Notes under the pieces: generated by a model | The model's database searches: none | Told to the model about the DNA's origin: nothing | What the model saw: only the letters and a program-made list of their open reading frames with translations | Position numbers and translations under genes: made by a program | Source of the DNA: Spirochaetia bacterium | GTDB lineage: Bacteria; Spirochaetota; Spirochaetia; WTKD01; G963693115 | Assembly (NCBI GenBank): GCA_965226065.1 | Contig: OZ245332.1 | Coordinates: 1,316,774 to 1,380,773, forward strand | Direction: 5' to 3' | DNA: 64,000 nucleotides | Part shown: positions 7,002-26,862 of the stretch, one piece after another | Numbering within the stretch: the stretch's first letter is position 1 | Layout: every line of letters begins with the position of its first letter

Positions 7002-7164
7002 TTTGAAAAAAAATCATTTTAGATACTTATTTAGAAATACGCGCAAGAATCATACGCATAGTAGAAAAACACTTACACTAGTACGGTGAAGATTTATAGC
7101 TCTCTTTATCCTTACAAAAAAGTAAGGCGTAAATGAGATATAGCTGCGGTAAAATTTTCATATA
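7002..7164 (+). repeat. 163-bp leader, copy 2 (upstream of TPR-DUF2971 gene)
   Basis: Direct repeat of 5552-5714 at offset 1450; ends at the ATG of the 7164 ORF. Confidence 0.95.
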
Positions 7165-10058
7165 TGAGAAAAGACTATACCGCGATTATTGAAGATCCAA
7201 ATGTATCAGATAAAGATAAAGCAAGGGCGTATGAGAGCAGAGCCGATATGTACTGGCAACAAGAGAAGTATGAGGAAGCGATAGAAGACTATACTGCGAT
7301 TATTGAAGATCCAAATGTATCAGATAAAGATAAAGCAAGGGCGTATGAGAGCAGAGCCGATACGTACTGGCAACAAGAGAAGTATGAGGAAGCGGTAGCA
7401 GACTATACTGTGATTATTGAAGATCCAAATGTATCAGATAAAGATAAAGCAAGGGCGTATATGGATAGAGCTGATACATACTGTCGACAAAAGAAGTATG
7501 AGGAAGCGGTAGCAGACTATGGGCAGGCGATTGAGTTATTTATCGGTGCTATAGATAAAGCATGGTCGTATTTGCGCAGAGGCGATGCGTACTTTGAGCA
7601 AGAGAAGTATGACTTAGCAATAGCAGATTATACGGAGGCGATTGGGTTATTTAGAAATCGTAAAGGGAAAGTATGGCCGTATTTGCGCAGAGGCGATGCG
7701 TACCGTGAGCAAGGGAAGCATGACTTAGCAATAGAAGACTATACCGCGATTATTGAAGATCCAAATGTATCAGATAGAGATAAAGCAAGAGCGTATGAGT
7801 ACAGAGCCGATACGTACCGTAAGCAAAAGAAGTATGAGGAAGCGATAGCAGACTATACCGCGATTATTGAAAATCCAAATGTATCAGATAAAGATAAAGC
7901 AAGGGCGTATGAGAGCAGAGCCGATACGTACCGTAAGCAAAAGAAGTATGAGGAAGCGGTAGCAGACTATGGGCAGGCGATTGAGTTATTTATCGGTGCT
8001 ATAGATAAAGCATGGCCGTATTTGTACAGAGGCGATGCGTACCGTGAGCAAGAGAAGTATGACTTAGCAATAGCAGATTATACGGAGGCGATTGGGTTAT
8101 TTAGAAATCGTAAAGATAAAGCATGGCCGTATTTGTGCAGAGGCGATGCGTACCGTGAGCAAGAGAAGTATGACTTAGCAATAGCGGATTATACGGAGGC
8201 GATTGGGTTATTTAGAAATCATAAAGATAAAGCATGGCCGTATTTGTACAGAGGCGATGCGTACCGTGAGCAAGAGAAGTATGACTTAGCAATAGCAGAT
8301 TATACGGAGGCGATTGGGTTATTTAGAAATCGTAAAGATAAAGCATGGCCGTATTTGTACAGAGGCGATGCGTACCGTGAGCAAGAGAAGTATGACTTAG
8401 CAATAGCAGATTATACGGAGGCGATTGGGTTATTTAGAAATCGTAAAGGGAAAGTATGGCCGTATTTGCGCAGAGGCGATGCGTACCGTGAGCAAGGGAA
8501 GCATGACTTAGCAATAGAAGACTATACCGCGATTATTGAAGATCCAAATGTATCAAATAAAGATAAAGCAAGGGCGTATGAGAGCAGAGCCGATACGTAC
8601 TGGCAACAAGAGAAGTATGAGGAAGCGGTAGCAGACTATACTGCGATTATTGAAGATCCAAATGTATCAGATAAAGATAAAGCAAGGGCGTATGAGAGCA
8701 GAGCCGATACGTACTGTCGACAAAAGAAGTATGAGGAAGCGGTAGCAGACTATGGGCAGGCGATTGAGTTATTTATCGGTGCTATAGATAAAGCATGGTC
8801 GTATTTACGCAGAGGCGATGCGTACTTTGAGCAAGAGAAGTATGACTTAGCGATAGCGGATTTTGACGAAGCAATAAAATTAAACCCTTATAATGCGTTA
8901 ATTCACTTCGTTAAGGGTATTTCTTTTCTTAAAAATAGAAAGCATGAGGACGCTATTACTTGTCTTCATGCTGCTTTACAGCATGGTATATTTAATGAAG
9001 ATGTAGAAATATATAGTCAAGAAATACTTGGAGAAGGTGACGACGAACTTTCTGAAAATATATTTAAAGTCTTTCAAAACGTGGTGAAGATATTAAACAG
9101 GTTAAAGGTAACAGAAGATTCTAAGGACAAGGTAGAATATCTTTCGCATACTACCAAATTATCTGTTTTTACCCAGCTTCTACCTGTACATGAGCACGAC
9201 AAAAAACTAGGTGCATTTCGCATGTACCACATTGCCTATGCTAATGACCCCACCGAAGGCACGGTGTTGTTTGACAGATTAGGCATCTCGCCCGACAAAA
9301 GAGAAAGGACGGATATTCCATATATACTGATTGCAAGCTTTTGTGGCGGTAAAGACCCACAAGCATTAGATAGCTTACCCATATGGAACATGTACGGCGA
9401 TGAAGCTAAGGGCGTAGCCATGCTCTTTAACATAAACGACATAGCTTCTCGTGAACAAGGGCATGTTACATCCCTTTCGTTTAAGGATAAGTATATTGAT
9501 GGCGAAAATAAAAGAAAAGTTGTTACAGAAGAAGAACGAGGCAAGGGGAAAACAGAACCTTTGCAGATATTATACGAAGTACACTATGTAAACAATCAAG
9601 AAGAGACAAGGGATACTCAAGAAAACAATGAAAAGAATAAGAATATAGATAAGATAATAGGCGAAATAAAAAAAGAGCTTGAAATAATAGAAAACCTAAA
9701 ACCATTACAAGCAAAGAAAATATACAACAAAATCCTAGATTTATTAAGTGGTTTGCGTTATCTCATAAAAGACAGAACCTACGCGTACGAAAACGAATAT
9801 CGCTTAGTGTGCTTTGCAAGTGAAAAAAACATATCAGAGGTATTAAAAATTGAAGAAGATGCACCAGAAGAGCGCTTTCCTCGCATCTATGTAGAAACAA
9901 AAATACTGAAAAATCTGTGCGGAGTAATGACTGCTCCTAAAGTTAAGGAAGAGCAAGCCTTAAGCATACAGTATCTTTTGTATCGGTATAAAAAGAATGA
10001 AGAGCTCTCAAAACTTGAAGAATTTCCCGTGTATAAAAGTAGAATTCCCTATCGCTAA
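7164..10058 (+). CDS. Modular TPR-array protein with C-terminal DUF2971-like domain
   Basis: 15 near-identical 37/38-aa TPR units. The C-terminal domain has AYANDPTEG, IASFC, LPIWNMYGDEAKGVAMLF and KDRTYAYENEYRLV, typical of DUF2971. Confidence 0.85.
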   Translation: MRKDYTAIIEDPNVSDKDKARAYESRADMYWQQEKYEEAIEDYTAIIEDPNVSDKDKARAYESRADTYWQQEKYEEAVADYTVIIEDPNVSDKDKARAYMDRADTYCRQKKYEEAVADYGQAIELFIGAIDKAWSYLRRGDAYFEQEKYDLAIADYTEAIGLFRNRKGKVWPYLRRGDAYREQGKHDLAIEDYTAIIEDPNVSDRDKARAYEYRADTYRKQKKYEEAIADYTAIIENPNVSDKDKARAYESRADTYRKQKKYEEAVADYGQAIELFIGAIDKAWPYLYRGDAYREQEKYDLAIADYTEAIGLFRNRKDKAWPYLCRGDAYREQEKYDLAIADYTEAIGLFRNHKDKAWPYLYRGDAYREQEKYDLAIADYTEAIGLFRNRKDKAWPYLYRGDAYREQEKYDLAIADYTEAIGLFRNRKGKVWPYLRRGDAYREQGKHDLAIEDYTAIIEDPNVSNKDKARAYESRADTYWQQEKYEEAVADYTAIIEDPNVSDKDKARAYESRADTYCRQKKYEEAVADYGQAIELFIGAIDKAWSYLRRGDAYFEQEKYDLAIADFDEAIKLNPYNALIHFVKGISFLKNRKHEDAITCLHAALQHGIFNEDVEIYSQEILGEGDDELSENIFKVFQNVVKILNRLKVTEDSKDKVEYLSHTTKLSVFTQLLPVHEHDKKLGAFRMYHIAYANDPTEGTVLFDRLGISPDKRERTDIPYILIASFCGGKDPQALDSLPIWNMYGDEAKGVAMLFNINDIASREQGHVTSLSFKDKYIDGENKRKVVTEEERGKGKTEPLQILYEVHYVNNQEETRDTQENNEKNKNIDKIIGEIKKELEIIENLKPLQAKKIYNKILDLLSGLRYLIKDRTYAYENEYRLVCFASEKNISEVLKIEEDAPEERFPRIYVETKILKNLCGVMTAPKVKEEQALSIQYLLYRYKKNEELSKLEEFPVYKSRIPYR
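7173..8858 (+). repeat. Coding tandem array of 114-bp (A) and 111-bp (B, C) units, order AAABCAABCCCCAAB
   Basis: 7x114 + 8x111 = 1686 bp, matching the span exactly. Confidence 0.95.
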
Positions 10059-10293
10059 GCTTAAGCTTTTATAGAAATTATCCCCCATGAATGGGAAACA
10101 CAGCTTGCTCCATGCATAGCTAGCTACGAGTATGCCATGATACAATACATGGTATAGATTTAGTCTTGAACACTTAACCCCTAGTGCAGAAAATTAGTGA
10201 AGGAACTTCGATTATGTTATCAAAGATGGAGATACAGTATTTCTTAAAGAGACAAAAGCACAACGGCAGTGCTGAGGAAAAGATGGGGGATTT

Positions 10294-12252
10294 ATGAATA
10301 TCACAAAAATACAAGACATATTGCATGAGCTTTTGAAGCAAGATGCGAGACTTTGGAATGAAGCTGAGCTTAATTACACGCGTCTTTTTGATTTACTAGA
10401 GAAGAATGACCCTGTGATTATAGCGCTTCTTTTAAAAGATGCTGATGTTAAAGAGAAATTCTTTATACAGGTGGAAAACGTTTTTGTTTTTAAGTCCGAT
10501 GAGTTTCGCTTTTTTGTAGAAGAAAACAAAATAGATAATTCTTACACGAGGTATAAGAATCGCATTGGCTTAACGAGTAGCAAGCGATTTATCAAAGACA
10601 CACACGATGTTGTCTTAGACTTTCCATACAAGGACTGCGTGCTAGAAGGTGGGCAGAGTAGGGACGAAGGCACGGATGCGTACTTTGCGCAAGGCAAAGA
10701 TAGAGCATACGAACAGAAGAAAGCAAAGCGGAAAGAAATATTTTACAACTCGGTATTAGCGCACGATGAGATTGACAGACTTTTTGATGCAAAAGCCTTG
10801 ACGAATTGGAAACGATATCGCAAAGACGGCATGCACGATGCTAGCGATATTGAAAGAGAGCAGGGCACGATACAAGAAAACCTGATACTCAAAGGCAATA
10901 ACCTCATAGCGTTGCACAGCCTTAAGCGACAATTTGCAGGCAAGGTGAAGTTGATATACATAGATCCGCCGTATAATACGGGCAATGACAGTTTCAATTA
11001 CAACGACAAATTTAATCATAGTACGTGGTTAGTGTTTATGAAAAACCGATTAGAAGCAGCGAGGCAGTTGCTACGAGATGATGGGGTGATATTTGTACAG
11101 TGCGATGACAACGAACAAGCGTACTTAAAGATACTGATGGACGAAGTCTTTGGACGGGAAAATTTCTTAAATGATATTATATGGAACTCTACAAAGTCGG
11201 TAACAAATACAGCAATAATATCTGTTGCACATACTCATACATTAGTTTACTTCAAGAGGAAAGATTACTATATAAAGTATAGAAATGAATTTAGATTAAA
11301 AGAAACTGGAGAGGGATTTTCTAATCCAGATAACGATCCTAGGGGAGAATGGAAGGCAGACCCTTTTCAGGTGGGAGGTTGGAGACCTAATCAACAATAC
11401 GATATAATAAATCCAAATACAAAAGTTACTTATAAACCAAATGAAGGTTGTAGCTGGAAAAATGACTTTAATAAGTTTCAAGAACTCTTAAAAGATAATA
11501 GAATTATCTTTGGGACAGATGGAAAGTCAGCTCCTCAAAGAAAAAGATTTTTATCTGAAGCATTAGAAAGAGGTAAAGTTTCTACAACAATTTGGAATGA
11601 CTTAGAAACGACCACTAACGGAACACAACATTTAAAAAGATTATTTAATAAAACTATATTTTCTAATCCCAAACCCGAAGGGCTGTTACAAAGAATTATC
11701 GAGATGGCCACCCAGCCCGGAGATATTGTTCTGGACTACCATTTGGGCAGCGGCACTACCGCAGCGGTAGCACACAAGATGGGTAGGCAATACATCGGCA
11801 TAGAACAAATGGACTACATAGAAGACATAGCGGTAGCGCGTTTGTGCAAAGTCATAGAAGGCGAACAAGGCGGAATAAGCAAGGCGATGCAGTGGAAGGG
11901 TGGAGGTTCTTTCCTCTATTGCGAGCTTGCCCCATGGAACGAGCAGGCAAAAAAGCGAATTGCTGCGTGTGAGTCTTTAGAAGCGCTAGAGACTTTTTTT
12001 AATGAAATGTACGAACGATACTTTCTAAATTACAACGTGAAAATAAAAGAGTTTAAAGACAACGTGCTAGGTGAAAAGCAGTTTAGAGCCTTAAGCCTTG
12101 AGGAACACAAACGCATTTTTTGTGCCATGCTTGATAACAACCAGATGTACGTACCTGTAAGCGAAATGGCAGATGCGAAGTATGACATTAGTGAGACAGA
12201 CCAAGAAATGACGAAAAGGTTTTATGGTGAGGAATTGGTTTTAAATTTATGA
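10294..12252 (+). CDS. mod: Type III R-M methyltransferase (Mod), copy 1
   Basis: ENLILKGNNL, IYIDPPYN, central TRD, DYHLGSGTT, GIEQMDY and GGGSF (beta-class N6-adenine MTase). Confidence 0.93.
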   Translation: MNITKIQDILHELLKQDARLWNEAELNYTRLFDLLEKNDPVIIALLLKDADVKEKFFIQVENVFVFKSDEFRFFVEENKIDNSYTRYKNRIGLTSSKRFIKDTHDVVLDFPYKDCVLEGGQSRDEGTDAYFAQGKDRAYEQKKAKRKEIFYNSVLAHDEIDRLFDAKALTNWKRYRKDGMHDASDIEREQGTIQENLILKGNNLIALHSLKRQFAGKVKLIYIDPPYNTGNDSFNYNDKFNHSTWLVFMKNRLEAARQLLRDDGVIFVQCDDNEQAYLKILMDEVFGRENFLNDIIWNSTKSVTNTAIISVAHTHTLVYFKRKDYYIKYRNEFRLKETGEGFSNPDNDPRGEWKADPFQVGGWRPNQQYDIINPNTKVTYKPNEGCSWKNDFNKFQELLKDNRIIFGTDGKSAPQRKRFLSEALERGKVSTTIWNDLETTTNGTQHLKRLFNKTIFSNPKPEGLLQRIIEMATQPGDIVLDYHLGSGTTAAVAHKMGRQYIGIEQMDYIEDIAVARLCKVIEGEQGGISKAMQWKGGGSFLYCELAPWNEQAKKRIAACESLEALETFFNEMYERYFLNYNVKIKEFKDNVLGEKQFRALSLEEHKRIFCAMLDNNQMYVPVSEMADAKYDISETDQEMTKRFYGEELVLNL

Positions 12253-14201
12253 ATATCAAAAAAATACAAGACATATTGCATGAGCTTTTGAAGCAAGATG
12301 CGAGACTTTGGAATGAAGCTGAGCTTGATTACACGCGTCTTTTTGATTTGCTAGAGAAGAATGACCCTGTGATTATAGCGCTTCTTTTAAAAGATGCTGA
12401 TGTTAAAGAGAAATTCTTTATACAGGTGGAAAACATTTTTGTTTTTAAGCCCGATGAGTTTCGCTTTTTTGTAGAAGAAAACAAAATAGATAATTCTTAC
12501 ACGAGGTATAAGAATCGCATTGGCTTAACGAGTGGCAAGCGATTTATCAAAGACACACACGATGTTGTCTTAGACTTTCCATACAAGGACTGCGTGCTAG
12601 AAGGTGGGCAGAGTAGGGACGAAGGCACGGATGCATACTTTGCGCAAGGCAAAGATAGAGCATACGAACAGAAGACAGCAAAGCGGAAAGAAATATTTTA
12701 CAACTCGGTATTAGCGCACGATGAGATTGACAGACTTTTTGATGCAAAAGCCTTGACGAATTGGAAACGATACCGCAAAGATGGCATGCACGATGCTAGC
12801 GATATTGAAAAAGATGCACAGGGCACGATAAAAGAAAACCTGATACTCAAAGGCAATAACCTCATAGCGTTGCACAGCCTTAAGCGACAATTTGCAGGCA
12901 AGGTGAAGTTGATATACATAGATCCGCCGTATAATACGGGCACAAAAGAGTTTTGTTACAATAATAAATTTCATCACAGTACGTGGTTAGTGTTTATGAA
13001 GAACCGATTAGAAGCAGCGAAGCAATTGCTTAGATTCAATGGCGTAATCTTTGTCAGCATTGATGATAAGGAACACGCGTACCTAAAGGTACTGATGGAT
13101 GAAGTATTCGGACGAGAAAATTTTGTCGGTGACTTAATTAGAAAAACAAAATCTACATCTAACATTATGAAGACAAATTTTAATTTTCAACACGAGAATA
13201 CCTTAATCTATGCAAAAGATATGGAGCATGTATATCTAAGTGGTGGTGAGAAAGATTTTCAGAATTATAGTAATCCCGATAATGATATAAATGGAGAATG
13301 GGTAGGAGCAGATCCAAGTGCAGCACGCATAACAAAGAAAGACCAATATCCTATTAAAAATCCTTATACAGGCAAAGTCGATTATCCACCTTCGGGGACA
13401 AGTTGGAAATTTCCTCAATATAGGTATGAAGAATACGTAAAAAGTGGACGGATAAAGCATAAGAAAATACATAAAGAAAATGAACGTGGCTTTATTTATA
13501 AACGATATAAGAAAGATGTAATAAAGCGAGAGTATGAGCTAAGTTCACTATTATGCACTGATACTGTTTACATGAATCAAGCAGCAACAAAAGAAAATAT
13601 CAAAATATTTGCTGATAAAACATTTGACTTTGCAAAGCCTGAAATATTTCTTAAAGTAGTAATTGAATCTTGTACCCAACCCGGCGATATAGTCTTAGAC
13701 TATCATCTTGGTTCTGGCACTACCGCAGCGGTGGCACACAAGATGGGTAGGCAATACATCGGCATAGAACAAATGGACTACATAGAAGACATAGCGGTAG
13801 CGCGTTTGCGCAAAGTCATAGAAGGCGAACAAGGCGGAATAAGCAAGGCAATGCAGTGGAAGGGTGGAGGTTCTTTCCTCTATTGCGAGCTTGCCCCATG
13901 GAACGAGCAGGCAAAAAAGCGAATTGCTGCGTGTGAGTCTTTAGAAGCGCTAGAGACTTTCTTTAATGAAATGTACGAACGATACTTTCTAAACTACAAC
14001 GTGAAAATAAAAGAGTTTAAAGACAATGTGCTAGGTGAAAAAGAATTTAGAGCCTTAAGCCTTGAGGAACACAAACGCATTTTTTGTGCCATGCTTGATA
14101 ATAACCAAATGTACGTACCTGTAAGCGAAATGGCAGATGCGAAGTATGACATTAGTGAGACGGACCAAGAAATGACGAAAAGGTTTTATGGTAAGGAATA
14201 A
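12249..14201 (+). CDS. mod: Type III R-M methyltransferase (Mod), copy 2 with a different TRD
   Basis: Same motifs as copy 1; near-identical flanks and a strongly diverged central region; ATGA overlap with copy 1. Confidence 0.93.
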   Translation: MNIKKIQDILHELLKQDARLWNEAELDYTRLFDLLEKNDPVIIALLLKDADVKEKFFIQVENIFVFKPDEFRFFVEENKIDNSYTRYKNRIGLTSGKRFIKDTHDVVLDFPYKDCVLEGGQSRDEGTDAYFAQGKDRAYEQKTAKRKEIFYNSVLAHDEIDRLFDAKALTNWKRYRKDGMHDASDIEKDAQGTIKENLILKGNNLIALHSLKRQFAGKVKLIYIDPPYNTGTKEFCYNNKFHHSTWLVFMKNRLEAAKQLLRFNGVIFVSIDDKEHAYLKVLMDEVFGRENFVGDLIRKTKSTSNIMKTNFNFQHENTLIYAKDMEHVYLSGGEKDFQNYSNPDNDINGEWVGADPSAARITKKDQYPIKNPYTGKVDYPPSGTSWKFPQYRYEEYVKSGRIKHKKIHKENERGFIYKRYKKDVIKREYELSSLLCTDTVYMNQAATKENIKIFADKTFDFAKPEIFLKVVIESCTQPGDIVLDYHLGSGTTAAVAHKMGRQYIGIEQMDYIEDIAVARLRKVIEGEQGGISKAMQWKGGGSFLYCELAPWNEQAKKRIAACESLEALETFFNEMYERYFLNYNVKIKEFKDNVLGEKEFRALSLEEHKRIFCAMLDNNQMYVPVSEMADAKYDISETDQEMTKRFYGKE

Positions 14202-14338
14202 TGACTAACAGAAGATACTTCATATACCAAGGATATAGATATTATAAAACGAGCTATTGAACATTTAAGAAGCAAAATGCCTCAAAGTAATTTTACATAC
14301 AGCAGGGTACATACACACAATAAAAGTCAGCGTCTTTA

Positions 14339-14368
14339 TTGACAGTGTATAACACAATACATTACGAT
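14339..14368 (+). promoter_or_regulatory. Putative sigma70 promoter of tnaA
   Basis: TTGACA-N18-TACGAT; AAGGAG RBS at 14403-14408 before the GTG at 14416. Confidence 0.55.
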
Positions 14369-14415
14369 CGTACCGTTTGATGCATGAATGATCAAGTAAT
14401 AAAAAGGAGCAGCCT

Positions 14416-15807
14416 GTGAGTGTTCAATATGTACCTGAGCCGTTTAGGATTAAATCAATAGAGCCTGTGAAATGCCTTACTCGGGAAGAACGAGAAAAAA
14501 AAATAAAGGATGCACAATATAATTTATTTAATCTTAGTTCTAAAGATGTATATATAGATCTTTTAACGGACAGTGGGACGGGAGCCATGAGTCAAGAACA
14601 ATGGGCTGGTCTTATGAAGGGCGATGAGGCATATGCGGGCTCTAAAAGTCATCAAAAGCTTGTAGAAACAGCACAGGATATTTTTGGCTATGAATATATT
14701 CAGCCAGTCCATCAGGGGCGAGCCGCAGAAAAAATCCTTTTTTCTCTCGTGATAGACAAGGGGCAATATTCTCTTTCTAATGCACATTTTGATACCACAC
14801 GGGCTCATGTACAACTATCTGGTGCAAAAATCGTTGATTGTGGTATTCCCGAAGCAAAAGATCTGATGACGGAATTTCCCTTTAAGGGAAATATGGATTG
14901 TGAAAAACTAGAAGCAATGATTGCGGAATATGGAGCTGATGCTATTGGAATTGTTATTATGACTGTTACCAATAACTTGGTTGGAGGTCAGCCAGTATCA
15001 ATGCAGAACATTCGTAGAACCTCAGAAATTTGTAGAAAACACGGTATTATGCTTTGCATTGATGCTGCGCGCTATGCAGAAAACGCTTTTTTTATTAAAA
15101 AAAGAGAAAAAGGCTATGCTGATAAATCCATTAAAGAAATAGTGAGAGAAATGTTTAGTTATTCTGATATGTTTACAATGAGTGCTAAAAAAGATGCCAT
15201 TGTTAATATAGGGGGCTTAGTTGGTATAAAATCGGACAAGCATTTGGAACAAGAAGTTAAAAACAGCACAATTATCTATGAAGGGTTTGTTGGTTATGGA
15301 GGACTTTCAGGTCGAGATATTGAGTGTTTATCTATTGGACTAATTGAAGGACTAGACGAAGATTATTTAGCATATCGCATTGGACAAGCAGAGTATTTGG
15401 GGGCGAAACTTCGTGAACAAGGTATTCATTGTCAATTTCCCACAGGAGGACATGGGGTATATGTAGATGCACAGGCCTTGCTCCCTCATATCCCCTATAA
15501 TCAATTTCCCGGACAGGCATTTGCAATTGAACTGTACAAGGAAGCGGGTATTCGAACAGTGGATGTGGGATCGTTTCTATTAGGTAACGACAGCAATACG
15601 GGTAAGCAGTTGCAATCGATGTTTGAATTTACCCGATTGTGCATACCACGTCGTGTATATACACAGTCACATCTTGATATTGTAGTAGATGCTATGGTGG
15701 CAATTCAAAAAAGATCGAACGAGGTCTCGGGATATAAAACTATATGGGAACCCCCTATCCTCAGACATTTTCAAGCACAATTATTACCCATACGAGAGAC
15801 TACATAA
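14416..15807 (+). CDS. tnaA: Tryptophanase
   Basis: [30 protein letters not shown] and MSAKKD (PLP lysine). HFDTTR carries Asp, as in tryptophanase; tyrosine phenol-lyase has FTTTR. Confidence 0.88.
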
Positions 15808-15855
15808 TAAGGATTGAAACTGAAAATAAAAGAAGCTACGATAAGGAGGTAGAAA

Positions 15856-17214
15856 ATGTCTCAAGATGATTTGAAAGAACAATCTGCTACAGATGCTTCG
15901 CAAGTAGTACGTGATGGTTTTAGTTCTAAATCAGGCTTTATCACTGCTTGTATTGGATCTGCAGTAGGTATGGGGAATATATGGTTATTTTCATATCGTG
16001 TAGGTCAATTTGGTGGGGCTGCATTTCTTATCCCATATTTTTTCTTTGTGATAGTGATTGGACTTTCCGGTGTTATTGGAGAAATGTCCTTTGGTCGTGC
16101 TATGAAAGCAGGGCCACTGGGTGCTTTTACGAAAGCTATTCAAATGCGAGGAAAAAGTGGAGGTAGTATTTTAGGAATGATACCTGTAATAGGTTCGCTG
16201 GGTATTGCCACAGGTTATGCTGTTGTTGTAGGATGGCTTCTAAAATTTACCGTAGGTGCATTTGATGGCGGGGTTTTATCATCTAAAGATAGCGGTGCAT
16301 ATTTCGGTGCCATAGTTGGACCTTTTGGTAGTGTTGGTTGGCATGTAATAATTTTAGTCTTGGTATTTCTTATCATGGTATTGGGAATATCAAAAGGTAT
16401 TGAGATAGCAAATAAAATTATGATGCCTTTGTTTTTTGTGTTATTTATTGGGTTGGCAATATATGTGGTTACATTACCTGGTGCAATAGAAGGGTATAAA
16501 TATTTATTTATACCAAAATGGAACTTATTAGCGGATCTAAAAACATGGATCTATGCTTTGGGGCAGGCATTTTTTTCTTTATCATTAGCGGGTTCGGGAA
16601 CACTTGTATATGGAAGTTATTTAAAAAAATCTGAAGATGTTGTATCGTGTGCAAAGCATGTTGCCTTTTTTGATACCCTTGCTTCGCTCTTGGCGGCAAT
16701 TGTGATTATTCCAGCAGTATTTGCATTTGGCTTAAATCCTGGTGCTGGACCTCCTTTGATGTTTATTACCATGCCAAGTGTGTTTAAGCTAATGTTTGGA
16801 GGGCAGTTAGTTGCAATTATATTTTTCGTAGCGGTACTATTTGCAGGCACTACTTCTCTAATGAATTTACTTGAAACTCCCATTGAAGCATTACAGCAAA
16901 AATTTAAGATTTCAAGAGTTTTATCAGCTACTACCGTTATAGGAATTGCACTTGTAATTGGGGTGATGATTGAGAATGCTGAAATATTGGGAAGGTGGAT
17001 GGATCTTATGTCTCTTTATATTGTACCTCTTGGGGCCTTGCTTGCGGGCATTATGTTTTTTTGGGTTTGTGGATCGAAATTTGTAAAAGAACAAGTACAG
17101 ATGGGGCGAGACAAGCCGCTTGGATCTTGGTTTGTATTATTATCCAAGTATGTATTTTGTGGACTTACCCTTCTGGTGCTTATTTTAAGTATTGTCTTGG
17201 AAGGCGGAATATAA
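15856..17214 (+). CDS. NSS (SNF) family sodium-dependent amino acid transporter, TnaT-like
   Basis: GSAVGMGNIWLF, GQFGGAAFLIPY, ALGQAFFSLS and GPPLMFITMP motifs; lies directly after tnaA. Confidence 0.9.
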   Translation: MSQDDLKEQSATDASQVVRDGFSSKSGFITACIGSAVGMGNIWLFSYRVGQFGGAAFLIPYFFFVIVIGLSGVIGEMSFGRAMKAGPLGAFTKAIQMRGKSGGSILGMIPVIGSLGIATGYAVVVGWLLKFTVGAFDGGVLSSKDSGAYFGAIVGPFGSVGWHVIILVLVFLIMVLGISKGIEIANKIMMPLFFVLFIGLAIYVVTLPGAIEGYKYLFIPKWNLLADLKTWIYALGQAFFSLSLAGSGTLVYGSYLKKSEDVVSCAKHVAFFDTLASLLAAIVIIPAVFAFGLNPGAGPPLMFITMPSVFKLMFGGQLVAIIFFVAVLFAGTTSLMNLLETPIEALQQKFKISRVLSATTVIGIALVIGVMIENAEILGRWMDLMSLYIVPLGALLAGIMFFWVCGSKFVKEQVQMGRDKPLGSWFVLLSKYVFCGLTLLVLILSIVLEGGI

Positions 17215-17492
17215 ACTTTATCTTGCGTAGGAGCATGTTTTTTTAGATTTATAACAGACGCTTGCCGACATAAAAGCCGATCTTGACTACCGCCTTGACA
17301 CAAAAGATAAGCAAAGCGTTTTATACATAAAACCGTACACTTGTAATCCATATATACATAAACACATTATGCTTTTCCACTAAGAAACTCTAGAGAATGT
17401 TTGCATGAATATTTGGTATATAAAGTTAAGATACATAATCGCATGTATTTATCTAAAACACGCTTTCCATACACACGGTACAATAAAAACTA

Positions 17493-17651
17493 ATGAGCCT
17501 CACATGCGAAATACTACAAGCATTACTAGCATGTAATAGCGCCTACCTTACCCAAGATGGTGACTTAAATACGACCAAACTTTACAAGCTAGCACAAGAA
17601 TGCAATCGCAATTTGCTGGAATTGTTATGGGCAGAAAAAATTATTGGATAA
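17493..17651 (+). pseudogene. 5' remnant of a third type III mod gene (52 aa)
   Basis: MSLTCEILQALLACNSAYLTQDGDLNTTKLYKLAQECNRNLLELL aligns with the N-terminus of Mod copies 1/2 (DILHELLKQDARLWNEAELNYTRLFDLLEKNDPVIIALL). Not in the ORF track. Confidence 0.7.
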
Positions 17652-17670
17652 AGAGAGTTTGATTTTTTTT

Positions 17671-18654
17671 ATGAATAAACCTAGTAAAGAAACTAAATTT
17701 AAAACGGTTATTGAGAAAAATACATTCTATTTTTATAACAGGATGTTTGAAGAAAAATATGAAGGATATTTAAATTCTCTAAAAGAAACTTTAGTGATTC
17801 TAAAATATAAAATAGAGACCGATGGATTAAGCAAAGAATTATTTGAAAATCTACTTAGGGAAAAAGAACATGGTTTGAGAGCGTTATTAGCATTAACCGG
17901 TCTTTCTAATGAAACATTAAAAAGGCTAACAACCATAATTCGCATTAAAAATGATAATGAACTAGATAAATTGGTTTATAAAGATAAATGGTATAAAGAT
18001 GAAGATATAGAAAACTTAAAAGAATGGAGCGATTCTAAGATTGATAAGTTAATAAAATCTAATAAATATTTTAGGAAAGGCATTATCAATATATTTTTTG
18101 AAGGTTCAACCGTACCTTTTTTAGCTGAAACCATGCCTTTGTTTGAGTTAAAGAAACTAAGTATTTCTAAATTAATATTTGAAATACCTGAAATGATAGA
18201 TACTCTTATAAGGTATAAAGAAAAAGGCAGTTATTCTAGTAAAAAAGAAAATAACCCAGAAATATTGTTAGAAAGTTTACTTGATAATTTACATATTACT
18301 TTTGAAAAGGGTGATTTAAATGAACTTATAAGTAATTTTCCTGAAAGCAAAAGAACGATGGATTTTATTATCCCCAGTAAACAAAATCCACTTATTATTA
18401 TAGAAAGCTCTTTCTTAGCAACTACTTCTTCTGGGCAAGGTGATAAATCAAAAACGGAAATTTCAATTGATAGTCTTATAAAAGCATACTACCCAAACGC
18501 AAAATTCATTGGCTTTGTCGATGGAGTTGGTTGGTATGTTCGGAAAGAAGATTTACGAAGAATGGTTTCTGCTTATGAAGATGTATTTACATTTCATGCA
18601 GAAGAATTAAAAAGATTTAAGAAATTGCTTATTGAGGTTTTTTCTGGAAAATAA
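17671..18654 (+). CDS. Type II restriction endonuclease, DpnII-family-like PD-(D/E)xK
   Basis: MDFIIP...IIIESSFLATTSSGQGDK and FIGFVDGVGW; adjacent to an MTase. ATG at 17671 (ORF track uses TTG 17644). Confidence 0.7.
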   Translation: MNKPSKETKFKTVIEKNTFYFYNRMFEEKYEGYLNSLKETLVILKYKIETDGLSKELFENLLREKEHGLRALLALTGLSNETLKRLTTIIRIKNDNELDKLVYKDKWYKDEDIENLKEWSDSKIDKLIKSNKYFRKGIINIFFEGSTVPFLAETMPLFELKKLSISKLIFEIPEMIDTLIRYKEKGSYSSKKENNPEILLESLLDNLHITFEKGDLNELISNFPESKRTMDFIIPSKQNPLIIIESSFLATTSSGQGDKSKTEISIDSLIKAYYPNAKFIGFVDGVGWYVRKEDLRRMVSAYEDVFTFHAEELKRFKKLLIEVFSGK

Positions 18655-18659
18655 TTTTT

Positions 18660-19589
18660 ATGTTAGAAAGTTATTTGAACAAAATTATTCAAGGGGACTG
18701 TTTACAATTATTAAAAGGCATTCCAAATAATTCTATAGATATTACATTTGCAGACCCACCTTTTAATTTAAAGAAGAAATATAATGGATATAAAGATAGT
18801 TTAGAATTTATAGAATATATTAATTGGTGTGAAGAATGGATAAAAGAAATGATTAGAATAACCAAACCTACGGGTTCTATCTTTTTACATAATATACCTA
18901 AATGGTTAACTTTTTATGTTGGTATACTGAACAAATACGCTTATTTCAAGCATTGGATCGCATGGAACGCTCCGAGTTCTCCTATGGGCAAAAGTTTACA
19001 ACCAAATCATTATGGCATTTTGTTCTATACCAAAGAAAGTAACAACACAAAGATTTATGAATTGAGAATGCCACATGAAAGGGATAGAAAAACCACATTT
19101 CTAAGAAAAGATTACGGCGGCAAGAAAGGGGGATTGCATCCGTTTGGCCCTTTGCTTTCCGATGTATGGTCGGATATACATAGAATCAAACATACCAAAT
19201 ATAGAAATGCCCATCCTTGCCAACTACCAGTTCATTTATTAGAAAGGATAATATTATTGACAACAGACCAACATGATATAGTTTTAGACCCTTTTATTGG
19301 CACTGGTACAACAGCGGTAGCAGCCAAAAAGTTAAATAGAAAGTTTATTGGTTTTGACTTAGTTCAAGAATATATAAAAGTAGCTCAAGAAAATTTAGCT
19401 GCGGTACAACCAAATTCAAAGATTGATGATGTATGGGTAAGTTTCTATTTAGACGAGGTGAAAACCATAAGAGATAAAGACTGGGATATACTATCAAAAG
19501 ATTTTGAAATACCAAGTAACGTAAAAGAAATTGACTTTAAAAAGATCAAACTTAAAAGTGTTTTCCAAAACTCTAGGAAATGTTTCTAG
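18660..19589 (+). CDS. Beta-class N4/N6 DNA methyltransferase of the type II system
   Basis: IIQGDCL, FADPPFN, HPCQLP and DPFIGTGTT. Confidence 0.9.
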   Translation: MLESYLNKIIQGDCLQLLKGIPNNSIDITFADPPFNLKKKYNGYKDSLEFIEYINWCEEWIKEMIRITKPTGSIFLHNIPKWLTFYVGILNKYAYFKHWIAWNAPSSPMGKSLQPNHYGILFYTKESNNTKIYELRMPHERDRKTTFLRKDYGGKKGGLHPFGPLLSDVWSDIHRIKHTKYRNAHPCQLPVHLLERIILLTTDQHDIVLDPFIGTGTTAVAAKKLNRKFIGFDLVQEYIKVAQENLAAVQPNSKIDDVWVSFYLDEVKTIRDKDWDILSKDFEIPSNVKEIDFKKIKLKSVFQNSRKCF

Positions 19590-19629
19590 AAACTCTTAGT
19601 ATGTCCGACATGAATCTTATCTTTTTGCC

Positions 19630-19740
19630 ATGCTTGATAACAACCAAATGTACGTGCCTGTAATCGAGATTACAGATACGAACTATAATATAAAGAAAGA
19701 AGACCAAGCGATGACGAAAGAGTTTCATGGGGGTAAATAA
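19630..19740 (+). pseudogene. 3' remnant of a third type III mod gene (36 aa)
   Basis: MLDNNQMYVPVIEITDTNYNIKKEDQAMTKEFHGGK* versus the Mod C-terminus MLDNNQMYVPVSEMADAKYDISETDQEMTKRFYGKE*; DNA similarity is obvious. Confidence 0.9.
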
Positions 19741-19862: not shown

Positions 19863-21161
19863 ATGATAATTATGAGTGAAGAAATACCTTTTATACCATA
19901 TGAAGAAGTTCTAAAAAGGTTAGAGAACACAAACGATGAGAATAATTTATTATTAGGCAATGGTTTTAATACTAGCTTAGGAGTAGGTACGAGCTATGAA
20001 GATATTTTTGAAAAGATGAAAGAAGAGTATATAGGATATAAAAAATTAGAAGAAAAATTCAAAGAGAAAAAACAAGATATTGAAGAATTAATAGGAGTAT
20101 TAACTGAAAGTATTTCTGATAATAAAGAATTTCTTTCTTCATATATAAATAACAAAGTCAAATTAGACTTTATGAAAGCAGCAAATATTATTATACAAAG
20201 CAAAATTAAGAATATATATAATAACAAAAATGAAGGAATATACATTTTGTTTAGTAAATTTATGAATTATTTCACTCTTAACTATGACCCATTTTTATAC
20301 TTATTATTGATGAAGTTTAAATTACCTCTAATTGAAACTATAAAAGAAAATAATTCACAGATGAATACATTAGGATTTATAGAAACTATAAATAGTCAGT
20401 ATGCTTCTTTGACAGAAAATCAACAAAAGTTATGCGAAATTATAAAAAAAGCACGAGATGAGGGTAAAATAACAGTTAGTGTAAATGAAAGAACTGCTGA
20501 CGTTTCACTAAAAAATACTACTAAGACAAAGTTCCTAAGTGCTATGAAAGATTTTCTTAAGAATAATGACTTTCCTTATAAAAACAAAGATATTGATAAA
20601 GTTATCAATCATATTTTGGTAGAAGAACAAAATGAGAAAGAACAAAAACAACTAAGAATAATAGATGGCTTTATATCTAATAAAGAAAAAGAATGTGTAT
20701 ATCGTAGTTTAGAGAGTCAAAATGTGTTCTTTTTACATGGTGCATTTCATATAAAAATAGCAAAAGATAAAACATATAAAATAACACAGACATCAGAAAA
20801 AGCTTTGTATACAAAAATTGAAGAAGCTATTAATAAAGAAGAAAAAATTATTTGTGTTTTTAAAGATAACAACAAACTAGATGAAATTAATAAGAATGAC
20901 TATTTGAAGACAGGATATAACTATTTGAAGACAGGATATGAAAAGCTTTCTACACTTCGAGGTTCTCTTGTGATTATAGGTTGTTCTCTATCTGAAAACG
21001 ATGAACATATTTTTAAGCAAATTGAAGCGAGTGCTATAGATACTATATACATATCAAGCATGGCTGATAAAGAGAAACAGGATCTTATAAGACAAGATTA
21101 TGAGAAGGCAAAAAAATACTTTACAAAAGAAGTAGTTCTTTTTGCTCCAATGAGTATTTAA
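19863..21161 (+). CDS. DUF4917-like SIR2-fold protein
   Basis: LLLGNGF, FTLNYD, FLHGAFH and IIGCSLSENDEHI; contains a 21-bp in-frame duplication at 20900-20939 (YLKTGYN/YLKTGYE). Confidence 0.75.
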   Translation: MIIMSEEIPFIPYEEVLKRLENTNDENNLLLGNGFNTSLGVGTSYEDIFEKMKEEYIGYKKLEEKFKEKKQDIEELIGVLTESISDNKEFLSSYINNKVKLDFMKAANIIIQSKIKNIYNNKNEGIYILFSKFMNYFTLNYDPFLYLLLMKFKLPLIETIKENNSQMNTLGFIETINSQYASLTENQQKLCEIIKKARDEGKITVSVNERTADVSLKNTTKTKFLSAMKDFLKNNDFPYKNKDIDKVINHILVEEQNEKEQKQLRIIDGFISNKEKECVYRSLESQNVFFLHGAFHIKIAKDKTYKITQTSEKALYTKIEEAINKEEKIICVFKDNNKLDEINKNDYLKTGYNYLKTGYEKLSTLRGSLVIIGCSLSENDEHIFKQIEASAIDTIYISSMADKEKQDLIRQDYEKAKKYFTKEVVLFAPMSI

Positions 21162-21193: not shown

Positions 21194-23886
21194 ATGAAAG
21201 AATACAGCATACCCATAATCAATGTTGCCGAACAGGCATGGGAATATGGCATTAACAAAGTCGAAATTCCTGCATATATTACAAGCAATTTGAAGCATGA
21301 TTTCTACGAGTGGCAAAGTGAGGCATAGTAAAATTTCTCACACAGCAACGCATCAAAGAAAAAGAGAATTCACATGCACCGCATCTTATGTTTACGATGG
21401 CAACAGGTTCGGGTAAAACGCTCATCATGGCAGCTACCATGTTGTATTATTACAAGCAAGGTTACAGGCACTTTTTGTTTTTTGTAAATCGAAACAATAT
21501 TGTAGCTAAAACTGAAAATAATTTTATTAATGTAGAGCATCCGAAATATCTTTTTACCGAAAAAATTGTCATCAATGATTCAACAATTGCTATGACACAA
21601 GTAGAGACTTTTAGCGATGCTCCACAAGGTATAGAAATAAAATTTACGAGTATTCAAAAACTCTACAATGATATTCACATTGAAAAAGAAAACCTTACAA
21701 CATTAAATGATTTACACAATAAAGACATTATCATGCTCGCCGATGAAGCTCATCACTTAAATACTGATACGAAAGCTGGAGCATCAGAACTGTTTTTAGA
21801 AGAGATACACGAAAGAACAAGCGCAACAGAAGTAGAAAGAAAAGGCTGGGAACACACGGTTATAGATCTTATTTTACATAAGAACAACACAGACAAGCGC
21901 AATAAAAATGTGTTGCTTGAATTTACTGCAACCATCCCTAATACTGAAAGCGTTGCTAAAAAATATCAAGATAAAATAATATACAAGTTTGGATTAAAAG
22001 ATTTCTTAGCTAAGGGATACACAAAAGAAATTAATCTTATTTCTTCTACCCTTGATAAAAAAGAAAGAGTTCTGCAAGCGTTGCTTTTTCAATGGTATCG
22101 ACACAAAATAGCGTTGAAATATAACATTGCCAATTTCAAACCCGTGATACTTTTTAGAAGTAAAACCATTGCTGAGTCGCAAGAGGATTACAAAGACTTC
22201 TTACAATGGATAGATGATCTTTCACGCAATGATTTTAATTTTCTTGACACTATTGCAAATAAAATTTATGAAGCGCAGCAACCAACACTTTTTGAAATGG
22301 GAAAATCGCGTACTAAAAAGGTCTTAGAGTTTGTTAAGAACGAAAACATTCGTATTGTAGACATAATAAATTGGATACAAGACAGCTATCAGGAAAGAAA
22401 CACTATTATTACGAATTCGAAAAACAATAAAACAAAGAAAGAAAAAACAGACGCTACTACAGAAACATTGCTTAATAATTTGGAAGATGTTAATAATCAC
22501 ATACGAGCAATTTTTACCGTAGAGAGACTTACCGAAGGTTGGGATGTATTGAATCTCTTTGATATTGTGCGACTGTACAAGGGGCAAAATGCAGGAGGCG
22601 GTACGAAAAAAACACCAGAGGCGACTATCAAAGAGAAACAACTTATAGGGCGTGGTGTGCGCTATTTTCCCTTTTCGCACGATGAGACAGTAAAGAATAA
22701 AAGAAAGTTTGATAGCAACCTCGACCATGAGTTACGAGTATTAGAAGAACTATATTATTACACCCATGATGAAAATTCACGCTATATTTCTCATTTGAAG
22801 GCAGAGCTAAAAAAAGACGGGTATATAACAGACGATAAAATCGTACAGACCTTTGCGCTTAAAGAGAAATTTAAGAATAGCTTGTATTATGAAACAACGA
22901 AACTATGGTATAACACACAAGTAGATAATCCTAATAGAAAAAAGAAACCATTAGATGAAATATTAAAAAATATGTCCATCACGTACGCATTAACAGGTTT
23001 TGAATTGCATGAAGAAAAAGGGATTGGGGATGACAAAGATAAAGAAACACATATAAATGGAAGTCCATCAAAAACTATACCAGTACCATGCAAAGATATT
23101 GAAAGACATATTTTCTTAAAGGCGGTGCATATCAAAGCAAAGCAAGAAAGATCTTTCTTTCAGTTTGAACAGCTAGAACAAGAATTAGATATTCATAGTA
23201 TTGATGAATTGCAAACGAATATATTAGCGGATAGTGAAATTCACTTTATTGTAGAGAAAGAAATGTCTTATGACAAGGTACCGAATAGAGAAAAATTAGA
23301 GGCAGTAAAACAGCTTTTAGATATGTTTTCTACAGAATGTAAAAAATATAGTATTCCAAAAATTGGTAGTGAATTTAAGGCAGGTAGTTTTTCACAGTTT
23401 TTTTCCACGCCTAAAACAAAAATCATAAACGAAAACCATAGAGATGATGCCATCGCAGAGCATAACTGGTATGTATTAAATAGCTTTGTTGGTACAAGCG
23501 AAGAAAAAGAGCTTGTTAATTTTATTAAAAACAGCGTTGGAAATTTACAAGAAAAGTATCAGGATATATATTTTCTAAAGAACGAAGAAATATATAAAAT
23601 ATACGACTTTGAACAAGGCAGAGGTTTTCAACCCGATTTTCTTTTGTTTTTGAAAGATAAAGAACAATTAGGCTTGTATTATCAAATATTTATTGAACCG
23701 AAAGGAGGGCATTTGTTGGGACATGATGAGTGGAAAGAAAATTTCTTAAAACGAATAGCAGCAGACTATGGAGATGCTCGCATATTACGTGCAGAGCATT
23801 TTTCCTACAAGCTCATAGGATTACCCTTTTTTAGCACTGGCGATAATGCGAATTTTGAACAAGAGTATAAGAAACTTTATTCGTAA
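21194..23886 (+). pseudogene. res: Type III R-M restriction subunit (Res) with a frameshift at about 21325
   Basis: Frame from 21194 gives ...EIPAYITSNLKHDFYEWQSEA*; the other frame continues IVKFL...MATGSGKT, DEAHH, EGWD, QLIGRGVR, PDF...EPKG. One base is missing (gca-ata-gta read as gca-tag-ta). Confidence 0.85.
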
Positions 23887-26670: not shown

Positions 26671-26862
26671 ATGTCACAGCATAATAAAATACATCTCTAC
26701 CTACAATCAATGTGCGCGGAAAAGGCATTTGAATATGGCACGGCATTAGCAAAACTGAAAATAATTTTCTTAACGCAGAGCATCCGAAATATTTTTTTAC
26801 CGAAAAAATTGTCATCAATGATGCAACGCTTGCCATCACACCAGTAGAAACTTTATTCGTAA
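26671..26862 (+). pseudogene. Collapsed remnant of a second res gene
   Basis: Three fused pieces: AEKAFEYG (res AEQAWEYG), AKTENNFLNAEHPKYFFTEKIVINDATLAITPVET (res AKTENNFINVEHPKYLFTEKIVINDSTIAMTQVET), and the last codons of res. Confidence 0.9.

Follow-up and report, generated by a model that had tools for sequence, protein, structure and literature searches.

Tandem loci for restriction-modification (R-M) of type III that encode several specificities have so far been described only for mycoplasma loci that are switched by simple sequence repeats (SSRs). The Mbo45ORF167P locus of Mycoplasma bovis PG45 comprises three adjacent modification (mod) genes and one restriction (res) gene, with an AG repeat in each mod, and a similar mod cluster of M. 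pulmonis has been cited (bioRxiv 10.64898/2026.05.01.722158). The mycoplasma mod paralogs have been attributed to duplication followed by acquisition of target-recognition domains (TRDs) (Atack et al. 2018, PMC5909438). Here we examine a tandem mod pair, mod1 and mod2, located at 10294-14201 of a 64,000-nucleotide (nt) stretch of the genome of a Spirochaetia bacterium (assembly GCA_965226065.1, contig OZ245332.1, positions 1,316,774 to 1,380,773). This whole stretch is referred to as the window, and coordinates count from its first base unless another sequence is named. We consider it probable that the pair is the surviving front end of a multi-mod R-M locus, encoding two beta-class type III Mod proteins whose TRDs recombine on an evolutionary scale, with no programmed switch demonstrated.

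Movement of TRDs between type III mod genes has been described in other hosts. In Helicobacter pylori, TRDs move between mod genes when conserved motif sequences on either side of them undergo homologous recombination (Furuta and Kobayashi 2012, PMC3467074). The genes involved are at separate loci, similar over only 8-117 bp, and the authors state that unequal recombination between tandem paralogs was not seen for type III systems (PMC3467074). Allelic exchange of TRDs is described for modA of Haemophilus influenzae (PMC1557822). Type III Mods with an inactive res serve as epigenetic regulators in phasevarions, for example in H. influenzae (PMC1976455). The structural reference for the family is the Mod2Res1 complex of EcoP15I (PDB 4ZCF; Gupta et al. 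2015, PMC4490356), in which Mod dimerises through its N-terminal domain (NTD) and methyltransferase (MTase) domains, Res is docked by the C-terminal domain (CTD), and the DNA is read by only one of the TRDs, methylation being left to the partner subunit.

The spirochaete pair resembles the M. bovis PG45 and M. pulmonis clusters in that its mod paralogs lie next to each other, with 5' and 3' regions that are conserved around a variable central TRD, and in having one res for several mods. It differs in its host, in the absence of the AG/GA tract by which each mycoplasma mod is switched ON and OFF, and in its res gene, which in mycoplasmas abuts the last mod but here is frameshifted and separated from the mods by 7 kb of unrelated genes. 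As in H. pylori and H. influenzae modA, TRD cassettes have changed gene context through conserved motif regions and the histories of TRD and scaffold are incongruent; unlike the H. pylori genes, the partners here are in tandem, share blocks of 0.5-0.7 kb and show concerted evolution together with a swap of position. The retention of intact Mods although their partner res is inactivated recalls the phasevarions, but mod1 and mod2 carry no hypermutable repeat. Finally, both proteins have the domain order of EcoP15I (NTD, MTase, TRD, MTase, CTD), whose locus differs in consisting of a single mod with an adjacent res.

The mod pair and its two target-recognition domains

Repeat finding and a pairwise DNA profile resolved mod1 and mod2 into two nearly identical blocks enclosing a diverged core (Table 1). 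The two copies of the 5' block are ~98% identical, with 11 substitutions and a small 3-nt indel zone at 10856-10860, and those of the 3' block are 97.3% identical (13 substitutions in 484 nt). Between them, identity passes through an intermediate zone (65-90% between copies at 10985-11180) and falls to only ~45-50% at the nucleotide level in the cores. Overall identity of the two proteins is 76%, and almost everything that sets them apart falls in residues ~226-475. The two genes are joined by an ATGA overlap of stop and start codons at 12249-12252. The last five codons of mod1 (LVLNL*) derive from the duplication junction, and mod2 ends in FYGKE*, as is typical of the Mod family. The locus thus shows one feature of a multi-mod locus of the Mbo45ORF167P type: two or more paralogous mods side by side that are alike at their ends and differ in their TRDs. 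An earlier note on this DNA had described near-identical 5' and 3' blocks around diverged TRDs and an ATGA joint, a description that is accurate to the base. A candidate 3'-end remnant of another mod directly upstream of mod1 (10237-10293) was only ~54% identical and unconvincing beyond a 24-nt extension of the repeat.

Table 1. Features of the mod locus and the surrounding island, in window coordinates
Feature	Position	Strand	Description
TPR-array/DUF2971 gene	7164-10058	+	235 nt upstream of mod1
mod1	10294-12252	+	intact type III Mod, 652 amino acids, carries TRD1
Shared 5' block, copy 1	10294-10984	+	N-terminal domain through motif IV
TRD1 variable core	11181-11751	+	preceded by moderately diverged zone 10985-11180
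mod1-private patch	11720-11751	+	differs at 13 of 32 nt, mostly synonymously
Shared 3' block, copy 1	11752-12235	+	motif I onward and C-terminal domain
mod2	12249-14201	+	intact type III Mod, 650 amino acids, carries TRD2
Shared 5' block, copy 2	12249-12942	+	counterpart of 10294-10984
TRD2 variable core	13139-13715	+	diverged counterpart of TRD1 core
Shared 3' block, copy 2	13716-14199	+	counterpart of 11752-12235
Beta-eliminating lyase	14416-15807		first gene after mod2
SNF-family transporter	15856-17214		
Type II R-M pair	17644-19589		DpnII-like restriction endonuclease and N6_N4 MTase
mod3 3' remnant	19597-19739	+	81% nt identity to mod1 3' end
DUF4917 / PADLOC PDC-S21 gene	19863-21161	+	directly upstream of res
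res N-terminal fragment	21194-21328	+	44 codons, then TAG TAA
Main res open reading frame	21388-23886	+	832 amino acids; PADLOC REase_III, model positions 72-856 of 873
res scar	26688-26862		36 residues, 75% identity to Res residues 39-74, with start and final codons

The encoded enzymes are identified by matches to Pfam, PADLOC and PDB and by intact motifs. Both proteins contain the N6_N4_Mtase catalytic domain PF01555 (E = 5.5e-50 and 6.2e-41) together with PF12564, the N-terminal domain of type III Mods (E ~1e-17), match the PADLOC model MTase_III PDLC03635 (E = 7.7e-217 and 8.8e-210), and match the Mod chains of PDB entries 6K0W, 4ZCF (EcoP15I; phmmer E = 7.5e-40) and 7DSU (Mbo45V). Motif IV (IDPPYNTG, at about residue 222) and motif I (LDYHLGSGTT, at about residue 480) are intact in both, and the order of motif IV, TRD and motif I is the beta-class arrangement. 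The diverged core falls between motifs IV-VIII and X/I, which is where beta-class Mods carry their TRD (PMC4490356). The histidine in place of phenylalanine in motif I (DYHLGSG) was considered as a disabling change and rejected, as DYHLGSGTT is the majority form of this motif among 211 homologues.

The two cores have different relatives. TRD1 is 72-79% identical to TRDs that sit on Mod scaffolds just 56-69% identical to its own, in Patescibacteria and other phyla, and the nearest relatives of TRD2, among them that of the H. pylori Mod in PDB 6K0W, reach ~50-55% identity. Neither has a match among the seven Mods of a second spirochaete genome discussed below, where identities are at most 36%. 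Because TRD1 and TRD2 are kin to different TRDs, mod1 and mod2 very probably encode different specificities.

Under the explanation that we favor, one ancient duplication would have given rise to two N6-adenine methyltransferase genes with two TRDs on an almost identical scaffold. The genes are predicted to be co-transcribed and translationally coupled through the ATGA overlap, and their products to methylate two different asymmetric motifs. Dimerization of Mod1 and Mod2 would proceed through the shared N-terminal and MTase domains, and heterodimers would probably form beside homodimers. The parts of the proteins that dimerise and that dock Res are ~98% identical between Mod1 and Mod2, so that the mixed-TRD heterodimers proposed in the earlier note are structurally plausible; new specificities would not be expected from them on the EcoP15I model, because there one TRD reads the DNA.

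TRD exchange and gene conversion in a sister genome

A whole-database protein search together with a scan of JGI metagenomes provided a single conspecific genome for comparison, here called the sister genome (L108); the next-best matches were at most 68% identical. Its match to Mod1 is a 97% identical protein of 647 amino acids (P0003) on a 1.80-Mb ENA contig, and the outer flanks of the locus are 99.6% and 98.9% identical to those of the window. The sister genome also carries a tandem mod pair with the same junction as in the window, but with the order of the TRDs reversed: its first gene is of the TRD2 type and 97.7% identical to mod2, and its second is of the TRD1 type and 97.1% identical to mod1. 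Comparing strains for mod copy number and TRD alleles, as the earlier note had proposed, showed that two copies and both TRDs are kept and that the order of the TRD cores is swapped.

A four-way alignment of the mod genes separates what belongs to position from what belongs to the TRD. The upstream leader, the mod-mod junction with its LVLNL* tail and the 3' end track position, whereas the segment at ~10856-11740 tracks TRD type between strains. Seven sites in the shared blocks (10410, 10411, 10414, 10415, 10968, 11901 and 12218) are strain-specific and common to both copies of a genome, a signature that indicates gene conversion between the copies. Pairwise divergences of the blocks are all ~2%, whereas the flanks diverge by 0.4-1.1%. 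Between the strains the TRD1 core is conserved at 99.3%, but 22 differences are crowded into 11676-11751. Within this interval, at 11720-11751, the sister TRD1 gene equals both TRD2 genes and the patch in mod1 is private and almost wholly synonymous. As the private patch is found in mod1 and the sister TRD1 gene is identical there to the TRD2 genes, the patch marks conversion tracts with different end points, those of the 3' tract being separated by 32 nt between the two strains.

The breakpoints fall in conserved motif-coding sequence flanking the TRD. The left breakpoint lies at ~10827-10856, upstream of motif IV, and the right one at 11719 or 11751, inside the codons of motif I, depending on the strain. 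The same TRD is also found at a different position with flanks of other history, both in the swap between the two strains and in the occurrence of TRD1 on distant scaffolds. On these alignments, recombination in the shared blocks is evidently real on an evolutionary timescale, and the duplication junction is older than the split of the two strains, the TRD cores having moved and the scaffolds having been repeatedly homogenised since. In mechanistic terms, homologous recombination and gene conversion take place in the 0.5-0.7 kb shared blocks, and they have homogenised the scaffolds of each strain and shifted TRD cores between positions. The swap itself may have come about in two steps, with excision in one block followed by re-integration in the other, or by expansion and contraction of the array through unequal exchange. 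The proposal that the blocks act as recombination substrates is therefore borne out by the swapped TRDs, the shared strain-specific sites and the shifted tract ends of the sister genome.

As the comparison depends on repeats, we considered the possibility that the tandem is an assembly artefact, either because two alleles of a single mod were joined or because the order of the TRDs was mis-resolved in one assembly. Interleaved repeats can in principle allow two equally valid assembly paths. However, two independent assemblies hold the tandem with an identical junction, the window genome is a single 1.85-Mb contig and the sister locus lies on its contig of 1.80 Mb. Within each assembly the copies differ at least every 130 nt, so that even short reads can phase them; with differing sites at most 130 nt apart, a repeat-induced error of order is unlikely, and we consider an artefact of either kind very improbable.

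A second alternative, put forward in the earlier note, is that the pair is a built-in and selected specificity switch in which frequent crossovers or conversions between the blocks generate TRD1-only, TRD2-only or amplified subpopulations. Its deletion logic is correct: a crossover in the 5' block leaves TRD2 and one in the 3' block leaves TRD1. The locus offers direct repeats of 691 and 484 nt that are 97-98% identical and have clearly recombined in evolution, it contains no alternative device such as an SSR, and a change of specificity would not be lethal with res inactivated. On the other hand, a deletion could not be undone in the absence of a donor copy, each of the two known genomes keeps exactly two mods and both TRDs, and no single-mod or three-copy relative was found by the protein search or the metagenome scan. 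The ~2% divergence that has built up since the last homogenisation also suggests that exchange is not very frequent. Of the methylome switching by deletion or conversion that the note inferred, the recombination is thus upheld on the scale of evolution, but with two copies in both genomes and no single-mod or amplified form in any collection, a selected switch seems unlikely. We would instead expect single-mod deletants to be rare, one-way and an ordinary by-product of direct-repeat recombination.

The absence of other switching devices, in contrast, was confirmed as the earlier note had stated it (no SSR tract and no invertase). Scans with TRF and regular expressions found no SSR in the mod pair, in which no run exceeds the T7 at 11994 and the A7 at 12258. 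Inverted repeats were not found either, and no recombinase gene was found among the open reading frames (ORFs) from 3742 to 29706. The pair therefore lacks the hypermutable or invertible element that gives a phasevarion its reversible switching. Separately, the A7 run (12258-12264, codons 4-6 of mod2) was made by a C-to-A change private to the mod2 copy; it is the sole homopolymer near a start codon and is too short for an obvious slippage switch.

Probable loss of the restriction partner, and the surrounding island

The only res gene of the Mod1/Mod2 family lies 7 kb downstream of mod2, behind unrelated genes. It is 53-75% identical to the res genes that adjoin the closest Mod relatives, and among ~60 relatives res comes after mod within ~200 nt or overlaps it; mod1 and mod2 have no intact cognate res next to them. 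The gene is interrupted by a -1 frameshift at ~21326, where one T is missing in comparison with the sister genome (GCA-TAG against GCATTAG), and its 832-residue ORF restarts just ahead of the Walker A motif. Since the only res of the family is frameshifted, Mod1 and Mod2 are left without an intact partner nuclease of their own family, and here they are probably restriction-less methylases for two motifs.

In the sister genome res is likewise displaced from the mods but intact (897 amino acids, 16802-19495 of that sequence), and it overlaps the DUF4917 gene by 4 nt. Its TRD2-type mod (8030-9987) instead carries three single-base insertions within 320 nt. Because the surrounding alignments (4877 nt and 1946 nt) contain no indels, these three frameshifts are probably real. 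As judged from the reading frames, the two genomes show complementary decay, with intact mods and a broken res in the window and an intact res and a broken TRD2 mod in the sister genome. The locus runs in the order mod1, mod2, lyase and transporter, mod3 remnant, DUF4917 and res, and the frameshift in res would have produced restriction-less methylases in the window, with res intact and the TRD2 gene broken in the sister strain.

Such erosion raises the question of whether the mod pair is itself a functionless remnant, unexpressed or catalytically dead like mod3 and res. The island is visibly eroding (mod3 remnant, frameshifted res and the res scar at 26688-26862), the sister TRD2 gene has its three frameshifts, and six of ten differences in the 5' block are at first or second codon positions. 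Neither of the two mod ORFs in the window is nevertheless shortened or has lost a motif of the family, third codon positions account for ten of the 13 differences in the 3' block, and the almost wholly synonymous nature of the patch at 11720-11751 points to purifying selection. We therefore regard loss of function of the pair as distinctly improbable.

The pair lies in a recombination-scrambled defence island. The res scar is located downstream of a C5-MTase/GHKL pair. The sister genome is without the type II R-M cassette and retains a longer 3' remnant of mod3 (15153-15383). A search for a 5' remnant of mod3 at ~17505-17627 gave no significant result: the best protein alignment scored 44, where the null was 33 +/- 4.8 with a maximum of 46. 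In both strains the lyase and the transporter, a metabolic pair at 14416-17214, are bracketed by direct repeats of the mod 3' end (13716-14199 in mod2 and 19622-19739 in the mod3 remnant). The DUF4917 gene (19863-21161 in the window, 15525-16805 in the sister genome) has an N-terminal half that is strongly diverged between the two strains, with 55.6% amino acid identity overall. The idea that it is a standing third component of the type III family was rejected, because only the window and the sister genome were found to have it between mod and res, and other relatives were not. Elsewhere in the window's genome there is a second, unrelated and apparently intact type III system on the minus strand (1485729-1492174 in coordinates of the genome's contig; a Mod of 623 and a Res of 996 amino acids), and its TRD is 47% identical to TRD2.

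The gene upstream of mod1 suggests a further reading, in which the TPR-array/DUF2971 gene (7164-10058), mod1 and mod2 form a functional unit, a Spirochaetia-specific module and not a decayed R-M front end. A genome of the same class and a different family (G071) contains seven Mod paralogs of full length, whose blocks are 84-92% identical and whose TRDs differ, arranged in two clusters (C5:113001-133000, L191, and 767501-785500, L192), together with a single res (C5:764136-766442). The stop codon of each of these mods forms an ATGA overlap with the start codon of a downstream TPR-array gene (with or without DUF2971), a homologue of window 7164-10058. The seven ATGA-coupled mod-TPR pairs with only one res favor a module, and the 235-nt spacer between the TPR gene and mod1 resembles the inter-unit spacers of 123-197 nt in that genome. 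Several observations argue otherwise. Three other TPR-DUF2971 paralogs in the window's genome have no adjoining Mod; the order here is TPR then mod, the reverse of that in G071; no significant remnant of a TPR gene follows mod2; the association is seen in two lineages only and is absent from ~180 other Mod loci examined; and both gene types are common in defence islands. The short ORF that begins at a TAATG overlap behind mod2 (14199-14415) was also rejected as what is left of a partner gene, its local alignment to the starts of TPR genes from G071 and the window being no better than shuffles and its sequence unlike the Res N-termini of relatives. It is thus quite doubtful that the window holds such a module, and similarly doubtful that the Mod lineage has become the exchangeable-specificity part of a Res-independent module with hypervariable TPR-array/DUF2971 proteins, in which block recombination would reshuffle TRDs and let specificity and TPR sensor co-diversify. 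If true, the coupling of Mod with TPR-DUF2971 would be a new methylation-linked defence architecture.

Weight of the evidence and significance for type III systems

A tandem, recombining and restriction-less mod pair remains the explanation that we consider probable, and certain points weigh against it. Informative sites in the blocks are few in all: three go with position, none goes with TRD type, and the seven that are specific to a strain are common to both copies. With only one conspecific genome, the direction and number of the recombination events cannot be reconstructed. The res frameshift is seen in one assembly, and the frameshifts of the sister TRD2 gene rest on a contig of 8x coverage. 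Family relationships are the ground for taking res as the partner of Mod1 and Mod2 and not of the lost mod3 alone. Finally, a crude scan found no sigma-70-like promoter upstream of mod1.

The tandem architecture itself is known and recurrent in unrelated lineages. The same pattern (flanks 85-98% and cores 40-50% identical) occurs in six more loci. A Rhodothermales metagenome-assembled genome has two mods, each with a poly-G tract (G10 and G12) at its split site (L069), and Ureaplasma canigenitalium has three mods (L072). JGI metagenome contigs contribute one locus of three mods (L131) and two loci of two mods (L133 and L187), all without a long SSR, and an ENA metagenome contig carries two intact mods with an intact res of 948 amino acids and no SSR (L189).

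Several tandem mod alleles provide one locus with several methylation specificities and, where Res is active, with several restriction specificities. For most purposes the spirochaete locus is an ordinary variation on known R-M biology. What is new is an SSR-less tandem in a spirochaete, with a displaced and broken res, and evidence from two genomes for a swap of TRD position and for concerted evolution. The complementary decay of the two strains is the kind of path that turns R-M systems into orphan methylases. The pair also provides a clean, natural two-genome example of how ordinary homologous recombination homogenises SSR-less tandem type III mod genes and repositions their TRDs.

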